Source: Candidatus Termititenax sp. (GTDB taxonomy: Bacteria; Margulisbacteria; Riflemargulisbacteria; GWF2-35-9; DYQY01). From it: DNA of 64,000 bases. Of this stretch, positions 3,205 to 32,183 are shown piece by piece. The stretch's first letter is position 1; each line of letters starts with the position of its first letter. Position numbers and translations under genes: made by a program. The stretch covers positions 62,149 through 126,148 of the forward strand of contig DYQY01000003.1 in assembly GCA_020719045.1 (NCBI GenBank). Direction: 5' to 3'. The notes beneath the pieces are model-generated. The model was not told where the DNA came from. It worked only from the letters and a program-made list of their open reading frames with translations, and ran no database searches.

Positions 3205-3984
3205 CTAAATAATAAAATCTATAATTATCCCTACCGCTAATAAAATACTAAAAAAGCTTTGTAGCTGATATGTTTTAGCAAGTGTTTCTTCAGATAAATC
3301 ATTATAGAAAACCCTCATAACTAAAACATAAACCCTAATACTTAAAAAAAAGACAATTAACAGTGGCCATTGATGCCTGAAAATTACAAACAATAAAACA
3401 ATCACATATGGAAAAACTAATGAAAAATAATATAAGCGCTTCCCCTTCACAATCCTTTTTAAATACCTGAGCTCTGTTTTCATTAAAATATTCAAGGTAC
3501 TAGCAGCCATCATAATTAGTCCAAAGGCTATAGAAAACATAAGTACTATAAAAGAAAAACTTGCACTTAACGCATAAAACAACCCCAGAAAAACTAACGG
3601 TCCAAACAAAAGAAAAGTCATAAATTCACGATACTTTGTTTGATTAAATAAAAAAGCAAAATATCCAGCAAACAGAAACCATATCAAGTTATAGCTAGAA
3701 TAAAATATAAAATACATAAAAATAACAGCAACTGTAACCCACAATAAAGCAAATAATAACAATGTTAAGATACTCTTTTTATCTTTATTTGCGACATGTT
3801 CATCACGCAAATAAATAGCAATATTTATGATAATTGTACCTGCTAACAAAAGGACAATCTCAATAATCCCAGCTAAGTATCCTGCTGATTTAGCTAATAT
3901 AAAGCATACCAGTATTGGAATAATAGATGAAGTTAGAAAGTGCCACTTAATAGGAGCTAAAAACTTTAGAATGTTATTAATCAT
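3205..3984 (-). CDS. polytopic integral membrane protein, function unknown
   Basis: 259 aa, about 8 hydrophobic helices; no recognisable catalytic motif. Confidence 0.4.
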   Translation of the reverse strand: MINNILKFLAPIKWHFLTSSIIPILVCFILAKSAGYLAGIIEIVLLLAGTIIINIAIYLRDEHVANKDKKSILTLLLFALLWVTVAVIFMYFIFYSSYNLIWFLFAGYFAFLFNQTKYREFMTFLLFGPLVFLGLFYALSASFSFIVLMFSIAFGLIMMAASTLNILMKTELRYLKRIVKGKRLYYFSLVFPYVIVLLFVIFRHQWPLLIVFFLSIRVYVLVMRVFYNDLSEETLAKTYQLQSFFSILLAVGIIIDFII

Positions 3985-4030: not shown

Positions 4031-6109
4031 TTATTCCTGTAACTCATAACTAATCAGCTGCAACATAACAACTAAGTTCTCAGGCAACTTCCCAAACCTA
4101 TCTTCGCATTCCTTTACTAACTCTTGAACTGCTTGCTTACTATCTAGGCTTGCTATCGATTTATATAACGCCAACCTAATGCTCATATCTGGAATATACT
4201 CTTCTGGGATATATGCTTGCATTCTGGTTGAAATATTCAAATAAGGTCTTTCTCTATGCTTTTCACCTTTTTCACTAGCAATCGCCTCATTTAAAATATG
4301 CATATAGAACTCAAATCCAACAGCTTCCATGTACCCGCTTTGTGCAGTGCCAAGAATATTTCCGATACCTCTAAGTTCTAAATCCCTAAGTGCAATGTCA
4401 TAGCCAGACCCAAGCGTAGAAAACTCCATTAACGCCTCAAAACGCTCCTTTACTTCTTGAGTAAACAAACTCTTGTCTCTGTACAACAAATAGCAATACG
4501 ATTGAATCTGATTCCTTCCAACCCTTCCTCTAAGCTGGTGAAGCTGAGCAAGACCAAAATGTTCTGCATTATTAACTATCATTGTATGTGCATTAGGGAT
4601 GTCCACCCCATTTTCAATAATAGTTGTAGCTATAAGCACATGGAATTTATCTTCATAGAAGTCCATCATCAAGTTTTCTAACTGGTGAGCACTCATCTGC
4701 CCATGACCAACTCGAATATCAATATCAGGTAGTACATGATGAAGCTGATTCCTCAAATGAACAATATCGCTTATGCGATTGTGTAAAATAAAAACTTGCC
4801 CCTTACGTTTAAGCTCAAACTTAATCTTATCCCTAATATAATCTATATCAAACTCATGTGCTTCTGTAATTATTGGTAAACGCGCTAACGGTGGTGTATT
4901 AATAACACTAATGTCTCGAATCCCTGAAATAGACATATATAAGGTTCGTGGTAATGGTGTAGCTGATAGCGTTAGAACATCAATATGACTTCGATATTTT
5001 TTAAGCATCTCCTTTGCAATAACGCCAAACCTCTGCTCCTCATCAATAATAAGTAGTCCTAAGTCACTAAACTCAATATCCTTCTGAAGTAGTCTATGTG
5101 TTCCTACAATAATGTCTATCATTCCTAGCTTTAACCGATTTAAAGTTCCTTGTTGTTCTTTCCTAGTTTTGAACCTGTTTATAAACTCGACATTCACACC
5201 CAAACTCTCAAGCCTACTCTTAAAAACCTCATAATGTTGTTTAGATAAAATCGTCGTTGGTGCAAGCATAGCAACCTGCTTTCGGCTAACAACAGCTTTA
5301 AGTGCTGCTCTTATCGCGACCTCTGTTTTACCAAACCCAACATCACCACAAACCAGTCTATCCATAGCCTTTGGTGCCTCCATGTCTTTTCTAATATCCT
5401 CTATAGCTTTAAGCTGGTCTCGTGTCTCCTTAAATGGAAATGACTCTGCTAACTGCAAAGTAAGCTCACTATCCTCCTGAAAGGAAAAACCATCCCTTAG
5501 CTTCCTGTTTTTATATAGATGGAAAAGATCCTTGGCAACATCTTTAACTACTTTTTTAACTCGCTGCTGTGTCTTTTCCCAGAGCTTGTCTCTCAATGAA
5601 TTAATTACTGGTGATGTGCCTCCAGTAAACTTATATATTCTTGCAAGTTGCTCAATAGGGATAAAAATCTTGTCGCCTTCTTGATACTCAACTACTGCAT
5701 ACTCGCCTTCAAATTTTCCAAACGTCATCCTTTGTAAACCTTGATAAATCCCAATACCATGATTAACATGCACTACTTTATCACCTATATTTAGGTCAAA
5801 CAGTATTTCATGTGGGATTACATACTCGTGATGCTTAATGCTCTTATCAAAGGGATTAATCTCGACACTATCATGTTTTGACAAGGAGCGCTGTGTTGAC
5901 GGCTCAAAGGTTCTAATATCATCAATGACATTATCGAAAAGCTCTATTCTGATCGGGACATTACTATTAGACGTAAAAACATCAATAATACTTCCTCTAA
6001 CAGCATACTCTCCTGGGTTTAGAACAAGTTTTGTTCTGGAATAGTGGTCAGCCTCCAATTCAGCAATTGTTTGCTCGACATCAATTATTAACCCTACTTC
6101 AAATTTCAT
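4031..6109 (-). CDS. mfd: transcription-repair coupling factor Mfd, short form lacking the N-terminal UvrB-homology module
   Basis: 692 aa with SF2 helicase motifs (GDVGFGKTEVA Walker A, LLIIDEEQRFG DEEQ box, LTLSATPLPRT, QLRGRVGR) and a TRG/D7-like C-terminus. Only ~130 nt of non-coding sequence lies upstream before the divergent ferritin gene. Confidence 0.85.
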   Translation of the reverse strand: MKFEVGLIIDVEQTIAELEADHYSRTKLVLNPGEYAVRGSIIDVFTSNSNVPIRIELFDNVIDDIRTFEPSTQRSLSKHDSVEINPFDKSIKHHEYVIPHEILFDLNIGDKVVHVNHGIGIYQGLQRMTFGKFEGEYAVVEYQEGDKIFIPIEQLARIYKFTGGTSPVINSLRDKLWEKTQQRVKKVVKDVAKDLFHLYKNRKLRDGFSFQEDSELTLQLAESFPFKETRDQLKAIEDIRKDMEAPKAMDRLVCGDVGFGKTEVAIRAALKAVVSRKQVAMLAPTTILSKQHYEVFKSRLESLGVNVEFINRFKTRKEQQGTLNRLKLGMIDIIVGTHRLLQKDIEFSDLGLLIIDEEQRFGVIAKEMLKKYRSHIDVLTLSATPLPRTLYMSISGIRDISVINTPPLARLPIITEAHEFDIDYIRDKIKFELKRKGQVFILHNRISDIVHLRNQLHHVLPDIDIRVGHGQMSAHQLENLMMDFYEDKFHVLIATTIIENGVDIPNAHTMIVNNAEHFGLAQLHQLRGRVGRNQIQSYCYLLYRDKSLFTQEVKERFEALMEFSTLGSGYDIALRDLELRGIGNILGTAQSGYMEAVGFEFYMHILNEAIASEKGEKHRERPYLNISTRMQAYIPEEYIPDMSIRLALYKSIASLDSKQAVQELVKECEDRFGKLPENLVVMLQLISYELQE

Positions 6110-6250
6110 AGTGTAACTATTTTAGTCTTTATAGAAATTAAAGGCAAATACTCCCCTCCGTCACTTCGTGCCACCTCCCCAAAATAAACATTGAATACGA
6201 TTTTCTAATCCTCTACAATACAATTAATAAATTAAAGGAGAGTGTTTCTA

Positions 6251-6763
6251 ATGTTAAACAAGAAAATGCAAGACGCTATCAATGACCAAATCAACTTCGA
6301 ACTATATTCAGCATACATTTACTTAGCAATGTCTGCTTATTTTGAATCCATAAATCTTAAAGGTATGGCTAACTGGATGAGAGTACAAGTAATGGAAGAG
6401 CAATCACATGCTAAAAAATTCTATAGTTTTATAACTGACAGGGGCGGAAGGGTTGTGCTATCTCCAATTGGCGATCCTGGCCAAAACTGGAAAAGCCCAA
6501 TCGACGCTTTTGAAGAAGCTCTTAAACATGAAAATAAAGTAACAGCCAGAATCGGAAAACTAATGGAACTCGCTTATGAAATTAAAGACCATGCTAGTGC
6601 TAGTTTTCTACAATGGTTTGTTGATGAACAAGTAGAAGAAGAGTCAAACGTTGATGCAATAATCCAAAGCCTTAAATTGGCTGGTGACTCCGCTGGACTA
6701 TTTATGGTTGATAAAGATTTAGCTACAAGAATGTTTGTTCCTCCTATTGGTGTAACAATCTAG
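6251..6763 (+). CDS. ftn: ferritin (non-haem, Ftn-like)
   Basis: Ferritin-like di-iron motifs (EL.SAYIYLAMSAYF, EEQSHAKKF, ALKHE) are present. The start is placed at ATG 6251, 10 nt after GGAG 6237-6240, because the track GTG at 6242 lies too close to the RBS. Confidence 0.85.
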   Translation: MLNKKMQDAINDQINFELYSAYIYLAMSAYFESINLKGMANWMRVQVMEEQSHAKKFYSFITDRGGRVVLSPIGDPGQNWKSPIDAFEEALKHENKVTARIGKLMELAYEIKDHASASFLQWFVDEQVEEESNVDAIIQSLKLAGDSAGLFMVDKDLATRMFVPPIGVTI

Positions 6764-7226: not shown

Positions 7227-8498
7227 TTAGGTTCTACGTTTACCGTGCCGAGAACGAAAGGTTTGGTTTTTAGGTGTCCAAGGTTGACGCTCTTGTTGTC
7301 CTTCTTCGTCATGAATGCCTAGATTTTCAGCTGATTCCTCTTGTGCCTCAGTTTCATGACCAAGCAATTGCACCTTCTCACCAACAGGTTCCTCACCTTG
7401 GAGTGCACTCTGTAATGCTTTTTCCGCATCTTCATAAATAATAAGCTCTCCTCTATCACTAACAATAACAATAGCATCTACCAGTACTGGCTCTTTTACT
7501 TCTCTAATTGTTTTGTGTTTGCCTTTATCCAAAGTATTTCCATCGGAACCTGCTGCAGTACTTATACCTCCAAGTATTGGTGCATAAGCCTCGGTCTTAA
7601 CTAGTTCACAAATGGATCCAGCATGACTAGTTAGCACTACAGACACACCACGTTGAAGCGTGTTTGCAAGAATAGCTGCTTCTCCTTTAGTCCATAACTC
7701 ATCACAAACAATGACTTCTGGAGTAAAGCCTACTGTAGAATTTATAAACATTGTCTTTAAATATTCTCTATCCCCTTTGCCTCTTAAAACTGTTGCTGGA
7801 CCAAGAAAAGGATGTTTGCCGGTTTCAGACATACAGGCTATTTCATCTGACGCATCTGCTACTACGACCCTTTTCATTAAATCCATACCTAAATATCTAA
7901 TAATTGACCTTAACCAAGTAGTTTTCCCTGAACCAGGCGCTCCTGCGATTAGAATCTTCTTACCTGACTTAAGCAACTCTGCTAATTTATCAATTCTAGC
8001 TACATCTATATCAATAAGACGGCTAAGCCTAAAAAACATATGGTCAGAGGATGAACCTGCAGGAATATTATCTTCAATAGATACTCTATTTAGTGTTCCT
8101 GGTATGATATGCCTAACGCCTGAAGTGAACACCTTTTCGTTATGTTCTCTTATGGTGGCGATGACTCTTTTCATTACAGTAGCAGTAGTAACGGTTTCAA
8201 AAATATGCCAAGGCAATGCTCCTTCCTTTCCTTTATTATAAAAGAAAGCGATTGCTGGCTCATTTAAGGATATCTTAATATCAATTAAATCATCCAAAAA
8301 ATTAGGACAAGTTTCTAAGATTTCATTTATCTCATCTTGTAAATCAAGTGGTAGCATACTTAATAAACTTTTTTGAAACTTTGCATTCTCCTCTACTAGC
8401 TGTGAGGCTGAAAGCTGATACCTGCTCATATTTGCTACCCTGCGCTCTACTGGGTTTTGAATTACTGCTGATTTTACTGAAACTAATTTATTAAACAT
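7227..8498 (-). CDS. SpoIIIAA/ycf45-family P-loop ATPase with a long charged C-terminal tail
   Basis: Walker A GAPGSGKTT, Walker B VIVCDE, and a downstream VVLTSHAGS block as in SpoIIIAA-like ATPases. The last ~60 aa are Glu/Gln/Arg-rich. The gene looks more G+C-rich than neighbouring genes. Confidence 0.65.
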   Translation of the reverse strand: MFNKLVSVKSAVIQNPVERRVANMSRYQLSASQLVEENAKFQKSLLSMLPLDLQDEINEILETCPNFLDDLIDIKISLNEPAIAFFYNKGKEGALPWHIFETVTTATVMKRVIATIREHNEKVFTSGVRHIIPGTLNRVSIEDNIPAGSSSDHMFFRLSRLIDIDVARIDKLAELLKSGKKILIAGAPGSGKTTWLRSIIRYLGMDLMKRVVVADASDEIACMSETGKHPFLGPATVLRGKGDREYLKTMFINSTVGFTPEVIVCDELWTKGEAAILANTLQRGVSVVLTSHAGSICELVKTEAYAPILGGISTAAGSDGNTLDKGKHKTIREVKEPVLVDAIVIVSDRGELIIYEDAEKALQSALQGEEPVGEKVQLLGHETEAQEESAENLGIHDEEGQQERQPWTPKNQTFRSRHGKRRT

Positions 8499-8592: not shown

Positions 8593-9804
8593 TTATATGT
8601 TTTTACAAGCAACCCAAAGGTCAAACATATTTGCCTCATCATTTCTTCTTGCAAACAACCCACTATTATCGGACCATTCAGCCCTCATAGTTGTATTCAT
8701 GTTTCTAATTAATCCAGGAACAGCTGCTAAATTTCCTTGTTGAATTGCCTGACGAATTAAAGGGAACTCCTCTCTGCTACTTCCTTCCTCCGAAGTTCCT
8801 CTATTAAAAACTAAACTAACAATAGCCGTCTTACAGCCAGCGAGTAGTTTGTCATATGCTTCTACACCAAGCCAATTTCTTGCCATTGAAATATATTTTG
8901 GCATAGTTTTATCTTCATATATCTTCATTGCAACATCATATGGAATTTCTATATCACTAATACTAGCCAAAACGCTGGATTTGCTTTCACCTTTAATATA
9001 CCTAAGTTGAGCTTCTTTAAGTCTATTGCACTTTTCCTCTCCAATATACTCATTTAGCTCCATAACGTTATTATGCTTAAGGTCATACCCAACTCCAATT
9101 GTAATTCCACTATTAACACCGGGAACGGTTGGTTTCTTTAAGATTGCTTCATAATGTGACTTGCTCGAGATCTCAAACTTTGATATAAATTCACTCATTC
9201 CTTGTTCGCCCATTTGATTAAGAAAAGCTGGTTTTTCTTCCAATGACATATTATGTAATGAACTATCACTATATCGCTCATATAATAATCTTGAACTATC
9301 CTGTTCAGATATTTCTATTCCTAATAGAGAGGACATAGCTATTAAAGTATCAGGACCAAGCTTACCGTCTATGGCTATTGATTCTGGCATTAACGATTGA
9401 AAATGCTTTACCACATCCATTATCTGGTCATCTGTTAACCCATGTAAACCTAAAACTTTCTCAGCAAAATCCCTATTCCATGTTCTCCAATCTCCGATTT
9501 TATAACCTGAACTAACTTTCTCATCAACAAATGACTTACTAGTCTCCCCTTTAAATCCATAAGCTATATTTGCCTTAAACGCCTCAGGTGTTTTGTTGTT
9601 TTCTTTGAAATCAAGTATTTCTGGCTTAGTCTGCTCAATACTTCCAGTCGTAGGTGGCCACCCATTAGGACAAACACCGGAAAAACTTACAGGAGTACCT
9701 GTTTCAGGAAAGAACTCAGCAGAAGAATCCTTTCTCTCCACAGAGCTCACTGCAGAAAGACTAGTATTTGTGGCTGCTATATCTAATGGTAATACAAATG
9801 TCAC
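8593..9804 (-). CDS. cytoplasmic (signal-less) peptidoglycan-binding + lysozyme-like (T4/GH24-like) protein with an N-terminal domain of unknown function
   Basis: No signal peptide or TM segment. The central IDGKLGPDTLIAMSSLLG resembles the PG_binding_1 motif. The C-terminal ~170 aa (TIGVGYDL...SLVFNRGT...RR.DEANMF) align by eye with T4 lysozyme/pesticin-type muramidases. Confidence 0.55.
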   Translation of the reverse strand: MTFVLPLDIAATNTSLSAVSSVERKDSSAEFFPETGTPVSFSGVCPNGWPPTTGSIEQTKPEILDFKENNKTPEAFKANIAYGFKGETSKSFVDEKVSSGYKIGDWRTWNRDFAEKVLGLHGLTDDQIMDVVKHFQSLMPESIAIDGKLGPDTLIAMSSLLGIEISEQDSSRLLYERYSDSSLHNMSLEEKPAFLNQMGEQGMSEFISKFEISSKSHYEAILKKPTVPGVNSGITIGVGYDLKHNNVMELNEYIGEEKCNRLKEAQLRYIKGESKSSVLASISDIEIPYDVAMKIYEDKTMPKYISMARNWLGVEAYDKLLAGCKTAIVSLVFNRGTSEEGSSREEFPLIRQAIQQGNLAAVPGLIRNMNTTMRAEWSDNSGLFARRNDEANMFDLWVACKNI

Positions 9805-18390: not shown

Positions 18391-19956
18391 ATGAACAAAA
18401 GACTCATTATTTTACTTATACTCATATTATTGTCTTCCTTTTTTCTTACTGGGTGTAAGGTCACACTTGAACAAGGTGATTTGCTTGAAAAAAACAACAA
18501 AACAACCGAAGCAGGTAATCTCTACTGGGAAATAGTAAAAGGTGATGCTACCTCATATTCCTATGAAACAAAACAAGAAGCAAAAAAAAGAATTATCCGA
18601 TTAAATTCTCAATCAATAATTCCAGAACTTAAAACAGAAATATTATCAAACAAAGATTCCAATTCAAAAACATTAATGTGCGACTTAATCATAGCACTCA
18701 ATAGTACACCAAACCATAAATGTATTGCCTTAGCTGGTCTAGCTGAAAAAACAAACCTCGATGCAAAAAAACACTACGCATCGGCTCTTTCAAGCATAGC
18801 CTCTGAAGAAACTACAACCATGATGATTTCTTTATATAGTGAAGCACAAGCCAACTATCAAAATGACCTTAAGGAGCAAAAATCAAAAGGTGTTACAGTT
18901 AACTTATATTCCAACAATCTACTCAGTTACTATCAGTTAGTTGCCTTATACAACCAACCAAAAACTCTTGACTTCTTGCTATCTATACTTGTGTCAAAGG
19001 ATGTTATTGACCGCCCTGGACTTATATCGGCTCTATCTCTTGTTGATGATCCTAAAATTATTGATTCAATATTAAGTATCTCTAAAACATTATCTGCTTC
19101 TGAAAAAGACGTCGTTACTAAACTCTTCTTGAACTCAAATGACCCCAGAACTTTTACCTTTCTAATTGGACAAGCTGTAACCAGTACAACTAATGAAAAA
19201 ACTATTATAGAAAAACTTGAAAAAAGCATAACAGCTTCTAATATTAAATACTTCTCAGCTACTTTTCAGGAACATAATTTTCAACTGAATAATAAAGCAG
19301 TTATAATAGCAAAATCATTAATAAAAAGTGTGCCATCCAAAGAAGCTGTTTCTGCTCTAACTCAATTACTACAACTTAAAGACGTTACAAAAAACGAAAC
19401 AACTTATGCAGAAATACAGGATATCTTAGCCTTCATAAATAAACATATGACAAAAGACAACCTTACAGACTTACTTTTAGCACTAAACAAGAATTTATCT
19501 ATTAAAAGCACTAGTGACTACTATGCTCTAGACGAACTTTTACAACAAAATATTAATATAATAAATAAATTCTACGATACTAATAGCTACCTTCAATCCT
19601 TTATGCTTGAACTTAAAACCCTAGCATCTGTTTATAAAGCAAAAGAAAAATTTGCTTCTTCTATTTATAAAGCGAGGGCATCCACTGAGCTAACAACAGT
19701 AAAGCTATTACTTGAGGAAATAGTTGAACTAACTGCTGTTATAACTAGCAATCAACCTGCTTCTAAGCTTCTTACTAACGTTAAATTCTTCGCTTCTAAA
19801 ATTGAAGATGCTGAATTAAAAAAGATACTTACATCAATAATAAAGGATAGCAATTATGAAAAAAACATTTCAAATGATGAAAGCCTTGATACCCTCTCTA
19901 TTCCAAATGCTATTAAATTAACTCCATCAACTGATATAATAGATGCAAATGAATAA
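18391..19956 (+). CDS. lipoprotein, function unknown
   Basis: Signal peptide with LTGC lipobox; 521 aa, helical-repeat-rich. Confidence 0.5.
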   Translation: MNKRLIILLILILLSSFFLTGCKVTLEQGDLLEKNNKTTEAGNLYWEIVKGDATSYSYETKQEAKKRIIRLNSQSIIPELKTEILSNKDSNSKTLMCDLIIALNSTPNHKCIALAGLAEKTNLDAKKHYASALSSIASEETTTMMISLYSEAQANYQNDLKEQKSKGVTVNLYSNNLLSYYQLVALYNQPKTLDFLLSILVSKDVIDRPGLISALSLVDDPKIIDSILSISKTLSASEKDVVTKLFLNSNDPRTFTFLIGQAVTSTTNEKTIIEKLEKSITASNIKYFSATFQEHNFQLNNKAVIIAKSLIKSVPSKEAVSALTQLLQLKDVTKNETTYAEIQDILAFINKHMTKDNLTDLLLALNKNLSIKSTSDYYALDELLQQNINIINKFYDTNSYLQSFMLELKTLASVYKAKEKFASSIYKARASTELTTVKLLLEEIVELTAVITSNQPASKLLTNVKFFASKIEDAELKKILTSIIKDSNYEKNISNDESLDTLSIPNAIKLTPSTDIIDANE

Positions 19957-29501: not shown

Positions 29502-32183
29502 CTATTTTGCCTCTAACCAATTATGTGCCTTTGAGGCATTTACAACTAACGGCACGTCTAATTTATAAGAGTTCTCCATTGCGGCAACAATAATTTTCGT
29601 TAATTCATCAGCTTGTTCTTCCTTAACTTCAACAACTAATTCATCATGCACCTGAAGCAACACTTTTGCATCAAACTCACTAATCACCTTATCTAAATCA
29701 ATCATGGCAAGCTTAATAATATCAGCAGCTAATCCCTGCATAGGATAGTTAATTATCACTCTCGTAAGTGCGATTTGCTCACGTTTAGAAGCTGTGGCAA
29801 ACTCCTTAAAGTTTCTCTTTCTTCCATACAAAGTAGAAATATAGCCATGTTCTATCACAAAATTTGGCGCTGACTCCATATAAATTTTAATTCCAGGAAA
29901 CTTATAAAAATAAAGGTCTATTTGATGCTGAGCTTCCTTAATATCAATCCCTAATCTATAAGACATCTTGAATGCACCCATGCCATAAGCGAGCCCAAAG
30001 TTAATCTCTTTTGCTTTTCGTCTCATTTCAGAAGTAACGCCCTCTAACGAAACTCCAAAAACCTCTGCAGCCGTTGCACTATGGATATCCAGACCTTTTC
30101 TAAATGCGTCTCTTAACTTCTCGTCCTTACTTATGTGCGCCAAAATTCTAAGCTCTATCTGTGAGTAGTCAGCAATAACCAAGGTGTACCCTGGCTTTGC
30201 AACAAAGGCTCCTCGAATCTTACTGCCTATATCTCCTCTTATTGGAATGTTCTGTAGGTTAGGATTACTGCTACTTAATCTTCCTGTTGCTGCAACTGTT
30301 GAATTAAATGTTGTATGCAATCTACCTGAACTATCCGTAAGTTTTGGCAATGTATCTACATAAGTATTAAGAAGTTTGCTAAGTTGCCTATACTCAATTA
30401 ACTTATTAGCTATTTCATATCTTCCAGCTAATTCCTCAAGCACATCCACATTGGTACTAAAACCTGTTTTAATTTTTTTGGAGGTTGGAAGTTGTAACTT
30501 ATCATACAAAATCTCCTGCAGTTGCTTGTTTGAGTTAATATTAAACTGTTCGCCAGCTAAGGCATATATTTGCTTTTCTATTTCAGTTAACTCATGATGC
30601 AATTCTTCTGACATTTTATTTAAATAATTTTTATCAAGAAGAATTCCTTCTTTTTCCATTTTATAAAGAATCTCAATTAAAGGCAGCTCCATCTCATTAT
30701 AGATAAATAACAAATCCTCTTCTTTAAGCTTTGAAGCTAATTTAGTTTTTAATCTAAGAATAGCATCTCCCCTTGAATCTAAGTACTGGATGGCTTTATC
30801 AGCAGATATCTCACAAAAATGGAATTTCTTATTCTTTGATAAAAGTTCCTTCTTTGTTTCAACTTCTTCACCCAAATGAACACTAAGCATCTTCTCAACA
30901 TCACGATTACTTCTTTCAGGCTCAGCTAAATAATCCATAATAGAGATATCATCATAAGAACCAGCAAGCTGAATTCCATCTGTATCTAAATAATGCATTA
31001 ATCTTTTAACGTCATTTACATTCTTATGTACTTTCAACTCGAACAATCCCTTTAAGCTTGTTGGCTTGGCAGATTGCTCCAAAGCAAACATAGGACCAAA
31101 AGGGTTACTATCGACAGCTGACAGATTTCCTGATGCAAAAGCCAAAGGAATAACAAACACTTTCCCAGATATTGTTGAAACGCTGAGACCAACTAATTCA
31201 TTAGTTCTATCATCATATTCACAATAAACACCTATTTCTTTTTCACTGCCAAGCAAAGCAATTGCCCTGTTAAGCTTATCTTCACTATCAACAACCTCTG
31301 TACTAACTTCCCTTGAAACTCTCACAACATTCTCAACACCAAGGAATCTTTTAATTAAACTATTTAATTCATACTTTCGTAAAAACGCTAATAGCTTTTC
31401 ATTGTCCATTATTGTATTAACAGCGCTAGTCTCGATATCTAAGGAAATATTAATTGTAACTAATTGCTTGCTTAAGAAAGCATTATCTTTATCGTTAATT
31501 AACTTCTCCTGAAGCTTGCCATGAATCTTATCTATGTTTTCATACACTCCTTCGATTGTTTTATAGTCTTGAAGAAGCTTGATTGCCGTCTTTTCCCCAA
31601 TACCCTTCACACCTGGAATATTATCTGAGTTATCTCCCATAAGCGCTTTCATATCTATCATCTGCTCAACAGTTAAGCCATATCGTTCAAAAACCTGCTC
31701 TGGACCGTATTCCTCTATCTCGGAAATGCCCTTTCTTGTTAAAAGCACATGAATGTCGTCTGAAACAACCTGAAAGGAATCCTTATCGCCAGTAACAATA
31801 TAAGGAGCTATTCCCTCTCTGCTAAGCTTCTTTGCAAGAGACCCAATAACATCATCAGCCTCATATCCTGGCAACTGCACTAGTGCTAAGCCTAGCTCTC
31901 TTACAAACTCTTTAATAATTGGAATCTGACTAATAAACTCTTCAGGTGGTTTCTCCCTGTTAGCCTTGTATTCTTTGTACATTTCATGCCGAAATGTTGG
32001 TTGTGGCAAATCAAACGCTACATATATCTGATCCGGCTCATGGTTTTTAATTATCTGCATTACCATACTAATAAAACCAAATAAAGCATTTGTCGGTTGA
32101 CCATCTTTTGTAGTCAGTCCACCTACCGCAAAAAAAGCTCGATAGGCTATACTGTGACCATCAATTATAAGTGCTTTTTTCAC
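29502..32183 (-). CDS. polA: DNA polymerase I (5'-3' exonuclease + Klenow polymerase; 3'-5' exo motifs apparently degenerate)
   Basis: 893 aa with an N-terminal FEN-like domain and the C-terminal family A motifs A (DYSQIELR), B (RRKAKEINFGLAYG) and C (LQVHDELV). GTG start at 32183. Confidence 0.9.
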   Translation of the reverse strand: MKKALIIDGHSIAYRAFFAVGGLTTKDGQPTNALFGFISMVMQIIKNHEPDQIYVAFDLPQPTFRHEMYKEYKANREKPPEEFISQIPIIKEFVRELGLALVQLPGYEADDVIGSLAKKLSREGIAPYIVTGDKDSFQVVSDDIHVLLTRKGISEIEEYGPEQVFERYGLTVEQMIDMKALMGDNSDNIPGVKGIGEKTAIKLLQDYKTIEGVYENIDKIHGKLQEKLINDKDNAFLSKQLVTINISLDIETSAVNTIMDNEKLLAFLRKYELNSLIKRFLGVENVVRVSREVSTEVVDSEDKLNRAIALLGSEKEIGVYCEYDDRTNELVGLSVSTISGKVFVIPLAFASGNLSAVDSNPFGPMFALEQSAKPTSLKGLFELKVHKNVNDVKRLMHYLDTDGIQLAGSYDDISIMDYLAEPERSNRDVEKMLSVHLGEEVETKKELLSKNKKFHFCEISADKAIQYLDSRGDAILRLKTKLASKLKEEDLLFIYNEMELPLIEILYKMEKEGILLDKNYLNKMSEELHHELTEIEKQIYALAGEQFNINSNKQLQEILYDKLQLPTSKKIKTGFSTNVDVLEELAGRYEIANKLIEYRQLSKLLNTYVDTLPKLTDSSGRLHTTFNSTVAATGRLSSSNPNLQNIPIRGDIGSKIRGAFVAKPGYTLVIADYSQIELRILAHISKDEKLRDAFRKGLDIHSATAAEVFGVSLEGVTSEMRRKAKEINFGLAYGMGAFKMSYRLGIDIKEAQHQIDLYFYKFPGIKIYMESAPNFVIEHGYISTLYGRKRNFKEFATASKREQIALTRVIINYPMQGLAADIIKLAMIDLDKVISEFDAKVLLQVHDELVVEVKEEQADELTKIIVAAMENSYKLDVPLVVNASKAHNWLEAK

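Follow-up and report, generated by a model that had tools for sequence, protein, structure and literature searches.

Naturally shortened forms of the transcription-repair coupling factor Mfd have been described. The Mfds of Buchnera aphidicola, Wigglesworthia glossinidia and the Arabidopsis chloroplast have no UvrB-homology module (BHM): both D1 and D2 are missing, and the genomes concerned are devoid of UvrABC (Smith et al. 2012, PMC3488230; Brugger et al. 2026, PMC13453472). Work of Manelyte et al. (2010, PMC3025350) provided two laboratory analogues in E. coli: Mfd ΔD7 is derepressed, binds UvrA and supports strand-specific repair, and Mfd ΔBHM displaces RNA polymerase (RNAP) without supporting transcription-coupled repair (TCR). 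The Mfd of Thermus thermophilus (978 aa; PDB 6M6A and a 2026 apo structure) is naturally compact and functional, with a mobile BHM of ~191 aa and a clamp that is mostly open. Here we describe a further short form, the 692-aa product of the mfd gene in a 64-kb stretch of contig DYQY01000003.1 from Candidatus Termititenax sp. (the whole stretch, positions 1-64000, is referred to here as the window). How much of Mfd does this protein keep? Is it a damaged copy of a longer gene? Can it still hand over to nucleotide excision repair (NER)? The answer we favour, with moderate confidence, is that it is a native, streamlined Margulisbacteria Mfd made of D2, a tether of ~19 aa, the RNA-polymerase interaction domain (RID), the D5/D6-TRG motor and three D7 helices, that its three deletions arose in the common ancestor of a Margulisbacteria lineage, and that TCR is kept with this minimal domain set.

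Domain content of the 692-residue protein

The gene lies on the minus strand, with the length and coordinates that a first, sequence-only reading of the stretch had given, and divides as follows.

4031..6109, minus strand: mfd, 692-aa compact transcription-repair coupling factor; ATG start, stop codon 4031..4033
5852..6109, minus strand: D2 (UvrB_inter), UvrA-binding/clamp domain, aa 1-86; PF17757 at aa 2-86, profile 2-87 of 91, E 3.6e-22
5795..5851, minus strand: short linker in place of D1b+D3, aa 87-105; 19-24 aa in 24 short forms; pLDDT <50 at aa 91-103
5627..5794, minus strand: D4, the RID, aa 106-161; PF02559 (CarD_TRCF_RID), profile 1-56 of 57, E 7.8e-17
5426..5626, minus strand: relay helix region from RID to motor, aa 162-228, including W177; modelled long helix at 176-204; offset to E. 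coli 373
4310..5425, minus strand: translocase lobes D5/D6, aa 229-600; PF00270 (DEAD) at aa 229-386, PF00271 (Helicase_C) at aa 429-533
4052..4225, minus strand: proximal D7 only, three helices, aa 629-686; PF03461 (TRCF), profile 2-59 of 95 only

The open reading frame (ORF) scores 875.1 bits against TIGR00580, the NCBIfam mfd equivalog (cutoff 800), its best PDB sequence matches are the Mfds of E. coli, Mycobacterium and Thermus, and by all testable core criteria its product is a member of the Mfd family. Against the enterobacterial full-length model NF007966 it reaches 664 (cutoff 1329). RecG has a homologous superfamily 2 (SF2) motor with a TRG motif, and RecG models match aa 200-595 of the protein; the best of them gives 400.7 bits vs a cutoff of 718, RecG cutoffs all being >650, and, unlike RecG, the protein lacks the wedge domain and has a RID, D2 and a TRCF domain.

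What is left of the N-terminal region? UvrB models match aa 2-94 against UvrB 157-250, and aa 16-86 align without gaps to residues 143-213 of E. coli Mfd, which are D2 in the sequences of PDB 6X26 and 2EYQ. The protein thus starts exactly at D2 and retains all of it, with D1a and D1b of the UvrB-homology module absent. The sequence-only reading had placed the start near the end of D1-D3, but the alignment runs through D2 and then jumps to D4 (E. coli 474): aa 103-685 align to E. coli 474-1063 at ~50% identity, covering D4 to proximal D7, with the RID opposite E. coli 477-532. The same reading had listed the translocase motifs, TRG and D7 as present. This is correct for the first two, as aa 229-600 carry Walker A GFGKTE (K261), DEEQ (E357), motif VI and the TRG motif (R556, R580, Q590), but not for D7, of which the TRCF profile finds the proximal part only and whose alignment stops at residue 1063 of the 1148 of E. 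coli. Three helices of D7 are modelled at 642-653, 658-672 and 677-691; the clamp cluster E667/D670/R671 is conserved and the distal half is gone. Compared with canonical E. coli Mfd (1148 aa; PDB 2EYQ, 6X26), the two proteins have in common D2, RID, relay helix, D5/D6-TRG, the hook region and the proximal D7 helix with its E-x-x-D-R clamp cluster. Absent are D1a (~126 aa), D1b+D3 (~260 aa, replaced by ~19 aa) and the distal half of D7 (the last ~85 aa). Thermus Mfd keeps D1a, D1b, D3 and a full-length D7, and the window protein aligns to its residues 319-893 of 978.

This distribution bears on a further proposal of the sequence-only reading, that the UvrA-recruiting module is wholly lacking and that classical TCR is lost in the lineage or needs a separate adaptor protein. 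The length of 692 aa and the loss of D1a, D1b and D3 agree with it, as does the lack of a nearby ORF for the missing modules (see below). A complete UvrB_inter/D2 domain at aa 2-86 does not, since only D1a, D1b and D3 are gone from the N-terminal region, and neither do its conserved UvrA-contact residues and the purifying selection acting on it, which also speak against a lost hand-off to NER. We consider the proposal very improbable. The scenario is the one published for the Mfds of Buchnera, Wigglesworthia and the chloroplast (PMC3488230, PMC13453472), not one that describes this protein. Like those BHM-less Mfds, the window protein is naturally shortened and retains RID, motor and TRG, and in both the N-terminal region is evolutionarily dispensable; unlike them, it keeps a complete, constrained D2 and trims D7 instead. 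Because D2 is present, it falls outside the published BHM-less class. It also differs from ΔD7 and ΔBHM in that neither module is fully removed: what stays are exactly the elements of D2 and D7 that touch each other. A D2-only, D7-trimmed Mfd was not found described in the searchable literature. BHM-less Mfds are already known, and the present form is a variant for which no description was found; nothing about it is categorically new. One database protein, P0211 (728 aa), combines a RID (aa 61-117) and the motor with a TRCF domain that is nearly complete, and has no UvrB_inter; it looks like either a D2-less, full-D7 type similar to the BHM-less Mfds, or a fragment or 5'-truncated gene call.

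Residue conservation was followed in an alignment of 60 sequences, 24 short forms and 36 long ones. Positions R38, R54 and F58 correspond, in the gap-free alignment, to E. coli R165, R181 and F185, and the window Mfd keeps all three; triple alanine substitution of these E. coli residues disrupts UvrA interaction and TCR (PMC3025350). R54 is invariant (60/60), position 38 is R or K, and F58 is F throughout the window's own subclade. On the D7 side, E667, D670 and R671 are the counterparts of E. coli E1045, D1048 and R1049, the cluster that contacts D2 (PMC3025350); D670 and R671 are invariant and E667 is conserved in at least 90% of sequences. The relay-helix tryptophan W177 (E. coli W550, whose role has been described in PMC3488230) is invariant too. 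In the motor, K261, E357, R556, R580 and Q590 do not vary in any of the 60 sequences. Their E. coli equivalents are K634, E730, R929, R953 and Q963, whose functional roles are established. Motor and known regulatory elements therefore look intact, as far as residue conservation can tell.

An AlphaFold2 model computed from the same alignment has a mean pLDDT of 82. D2 (pLDDT 81-92) and what is left of D7 are confidently folded, and the tether is disordered over aa 91-103. Foldseek returns Mfd structures as the top matches of the model, with query-normalised TM-scores of 0.82-0.85 vs apo Mycobacterium Mfd and 0.64-0.66 vs E. coli 2EYQ.

Occurrence of the short form in Margulisbacteria

Could the gene be longer than it appears? 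The sequence-only reading had seen about 130 nt between mfd and a divergent ferritin gene, and no alternative start; both hold.

6110..6241, no strand: divergent intergenic region between mfd and ferritin, 132 nt; three in-frame stops
6242..6763, plus strand: ferritin gene, divergent neighbour, not part of the system; PF00210, E 3.8e-45

The stops lie in the mfd frame 5, 18 and 39 codons 5' of the ATG, so that no upstream extension of mfd is possible; an alternative or upstream start is ruled out by these stops together with the coincidence of the ATG with the start of the D2 profile. The spacer also contains sigma70-like hexamers (TTGCCT-17-TAAAAT at 6147..6119, minus strand, a consensus match only) ~10 nt 5' of the ATG at 6109. 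No Shine-Dalgarno sequence lies between these hexamers and the ATG, and the mRNA may be leaderless or nearly so. Directly downstream of mfd is a 259-aa multi-pass membrane ORF (3205-3984, minus strand) without a Pfam match at E up to 0.01.

Could the short mfd result from an error or from gene decay, such as misassembly, a frameshift, a miscalled start or the breakdown of a full-length mfd into a pseudogene? The length is unusual for Mfd. Among the best 150 matches in a library of 1.84 billion representatives at 50% identity, only 4 show a short form matching as a single stretch; the others of these 150, except P0211, have at least 995 aa and match with D2 and D4-D7 as separate stretches, so that all but 5 are of that size. 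Everything else argues against an artefact. Exactly the same protein sequence recurs in assemblies made independently of each other, NCBI GCA_974328665.1 (a 138 kb contig), a JGI metagenome and Logan, three in all, which rules out an assembly error. A database search gave 23 further homologues of 691-717 aa, with 44-91% identity and the same three precise deletions, so the suggestion to check whether relatives are equally short has a positive answer. To this are added the in-frame stops, a start at position 2 of the D2 profile, the intact catalytic residues and a dN/dS far below 1 in every domain. The sequence-only reading was right that the gene is natively short, and the probability of an artefact is negligible.

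How widespread is this architecture? All short homologues that carry an organism name come from Candidatus Margulisbacteria or Margulisiibacteriota, and the closest species-representative genomes are labelled Marinamargulisbacteria and Riflemargulisbacteria. The same three deletions are common to 24/24 short forms, and the spacings separate them from the 36 long forms:

Residues before D2: short, 0-14 aa; long, 112-157 aa in 35, none in P0070 (961 aa)
D2-to-RID spacing: short, 19-24 aa; long, 163-300 aa
Residues beyond the end of the window protein: short, 0-8 aa; long, 51-107 aa

In a neighbour-joining tree built without bootstrap from the D4-D6 columns that both groups share, the short forms make up a single clade. 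D2 is no less conserved in them (mean pairwise identity 0.47 among short forms vs 0.43 among long forms), and the linker that replaces D1b+D3 is their least conserved segment (0.31). Codon comparison of D2 with a 91%-identical Marinamargulisbacteria metagenome-assembled genome gives pN 0.09, pS 0.69 and a dN/dS of ~0.05, to be read as an upper-bound-like ratio only as synonymous sites are saturated against this relative; the other domains give similar values. By these sequence comparisons, D2 is under strong purifying selection.

Have the missing modules moved elsewhere? A tblastn search of the 64-kb window and of the DNA flanking the short-mfd loci, with 107 pieces from the 36 long Mfds, found no separately encoded D1a, D1b+D3 or D7C, and the positive controls, the long mfd genes in loci L011 and L007, were found as expected. 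This agrees with the sequence-only reading, in which ~400 residues of the N-terminal region were absent and not encoded nearby. A 225-aa ORF in locus L013 (9331-10008) was rejected as a split-off N-terminus, as it is a ComFC-like phosphoribosyltransferase.

The surroundings of the short mfd genes are of at least six different kinds, and in each of them an upstream gene lies so close that an N-terminal extension would not fit:

Divergent ferritin (the window and locus L012)
pth-mfd-surA-mazG-eno
ComFC-like gene overlapping the mfd start (L013)
STAS or response-regulator genes upstream, SpoU methylase downstream
Aminotransferase upstream
M23 peptidase upstream

The 77%-identical L012 locus matches the window in its ferritin / flavin-reductase / mfd arrangement. 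In L013, the ComFC-like gene and a 708-aa short mfd share 8 nt at the mfd start, an overlap that suggests translational coupling. Directly after pth in L011 (4928-7927) lies the gene for P0081, a Margulisiibacteriota Mfd of 999 aa that stands outside the short clade in the neighbour-joining tree. In P0081, D1a and D2 are present, the D1b/D3 region is shortened to 163 aa and the D7 tail to 51 aa; this may represent a stage between the canonical architecture and that of the 692-aa forms.

Coupling to repair or release of RNA polymerase only?

How would such a small Mfd work? From the conserved parts the following mechanism can be proposed. The RID would bind the β subunit of stalled RNAP and the SF2/TRG motor would translocate on the upstream duplex DNA, pushing the polymerase forward and off. 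D2 would hang beside the RID on its flexible tether of ~19 residues and alternate between two states. At rest it would dock on the D7 clamp helix (658-672, with E667/D670/R671), giving both autoinhibition and masking; once released, it would present its conserved R38/R54/F58 surface to UvrA. Within the UvrB-homology module, contact with UvrA has been demonstrated for D2 alone, and the contact residues are documented in E. coli, where the BHM is essential and strand-specific repair still takes place without D7 (PMC3025350). The mechanism is compatible with these deletion data and with the behaviour of Thermus Mfd, and the lineage-wide minimal Mfd probably still couples to NER, judging by what its sequence retains. 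A bolder version, in which UvrA recruitment in Margulisbacteria TCR depends entirely on a free-standing D2 with its disordered tether of ~20 aa, and the autoinhibitory switch entirely on the three-helix D7 remnant, is offered more tentatively, as somewhat less likely than not.

Is D2 really there for UvrA? The protein could instead be an RNAP-release factor uncoupled from repair, in which the sole remaining task of D2 is autoinhibition, by pairing with the D7 helix to form the clamp, and no UvrA is recruited; such a protein would serve transcription termination and roadblock clearance only. The following observations support this possibility or weigh against our preferred reading. E. coli R165 and R181 are also residues of the clamp interface, so conservation of their equivalents could reflect autoinhibition and not UvrA binding. 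The third position, solvent-exposed F185 in E. coli, is F in 16/24 short vs 32/36 long forms, relaxed in the deeper short-form branches, where 8/24 have another residue. Loss of D1a and D1b removes the scaffold that normally seats D2. The AlphaFold2 model was compared by global superposition scores only, which leaves D2-D7 docking as an inference. No uvrA, uvrB or uvrC was found among the window ORFs of at least 430 aa or in ~10 kb past each end (~84 kb of the 138-kb contig), nor were uvr genes found in eight other short-mfd neighbourhoods, altogether too small a fraction of a genome to conclude from. A second, full-length mfd paralogue may also exist elsewhere in the genome.

Other observations speak for coupling. 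The natural Mfds of UvrABC-less genomes have dropped D2 altogether, and P0211, unless it is a fragment, shows that a D2-less architecture with full D7 exists; thus a clamp is not required for a viable Mfd. Thermus Mfd, in turn, does not need a closed clamp to function. The window's subclade has kept the three UvrA-contact residues intact, and a related Marinamargulisbacterium keeps UvrA and UvrB: the 1.51-Mb genome of ‘Ruthmannia eludens’ has annotated excinuclease ABC subunits A and B together with a TRCF (PMC6784892, supplementary file 3). The supplements of another Margulisbacteria genomics paper (PMC6349859) contain no uvr, mfd or KO entries. Genes of free-living type on the window contig include those for AcrB/OEP efflux, OmpA and PolA, and by this gene content the host appears to be a free-living, diderm-type bacterium. 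The window also holds a gene for a DNA polymerase I of 893 aa (29502-32183, minus strand) with 5'-3' exonuclease, 3'-5' exonuclease-like and polymerase domains; this polymerase is full-length, so at least the gap-filling polymerase of NER is encoded. Indirectly, then, gene content, the R. eludens annotation and the loss of D2 from the Mfds of UvrABC-less genomes favour the presence of NER in the host. On balance a repair-uncoupled release factor seems unlikely, though it is the alternative to be taken most seriously, and a native minimal Mfd that still recruits UvrA through D2 is preferred.

Neighbouring features and significance

Two adjacent ORFs on the minus strand near mfd, 7227-8498 (423 aa) and 8593-9804 (403 aa), match no Pfam family above threshold. 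In the first, a P-loop is accompanied by faint SpoIIIAA, T2SSE and STAND-like matches and by a charged tail at the C-terminus; in the second, the C-terminus faintly resembles phage lysozyme. Both are conserved beside mfd in the L012 locus. A 521-aa ORF further on (18391-19956, plus strand) has no Pfam match at E up to 0.01. Across the window, with ~34-35% GC, the GC skew stays below zero nearly everywhere and adds up to -4.7 over 64 kb, consistent with a position within one replichore in which the plus strand is the lagging-strand template.

The roles of D1a, D1b, D3 and distal D7 in Mfd are still poorly defined. In current models, which are based on E. coli, the whole D1-D3 module makes large choreographed movements during loading. 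A clade that has deleted D1a, D1b, D3 and distal D7 while keeping D2, the D7 clamp helix and the relay tryptophan is a natural experiment on the minimal functional set, and would make the dispensability of the four missing parts directly testable. It also allows two kinds of short Mfd to be separated, the D2-less forms of genomes that have lost NER and the D2-only forms, which by their conserved D2 most likely still interact with UvrA. For annotators, the 692-aa form should not be flagged as a fragment. It is also a small transcription-repair coupling factor that is probably tractable in structural and single-molecule work. If a tethered D2 and a three-helix D7 remnant are indeed all that Margulisbacteria need, D1a, D1b, D3 and distal D7 (>450 canonical residues) would be dispensable for both coupling and regulation, and the protein would offer a natural minimal scaffold for dissecting the hand-off from stalled RNAP to NER.

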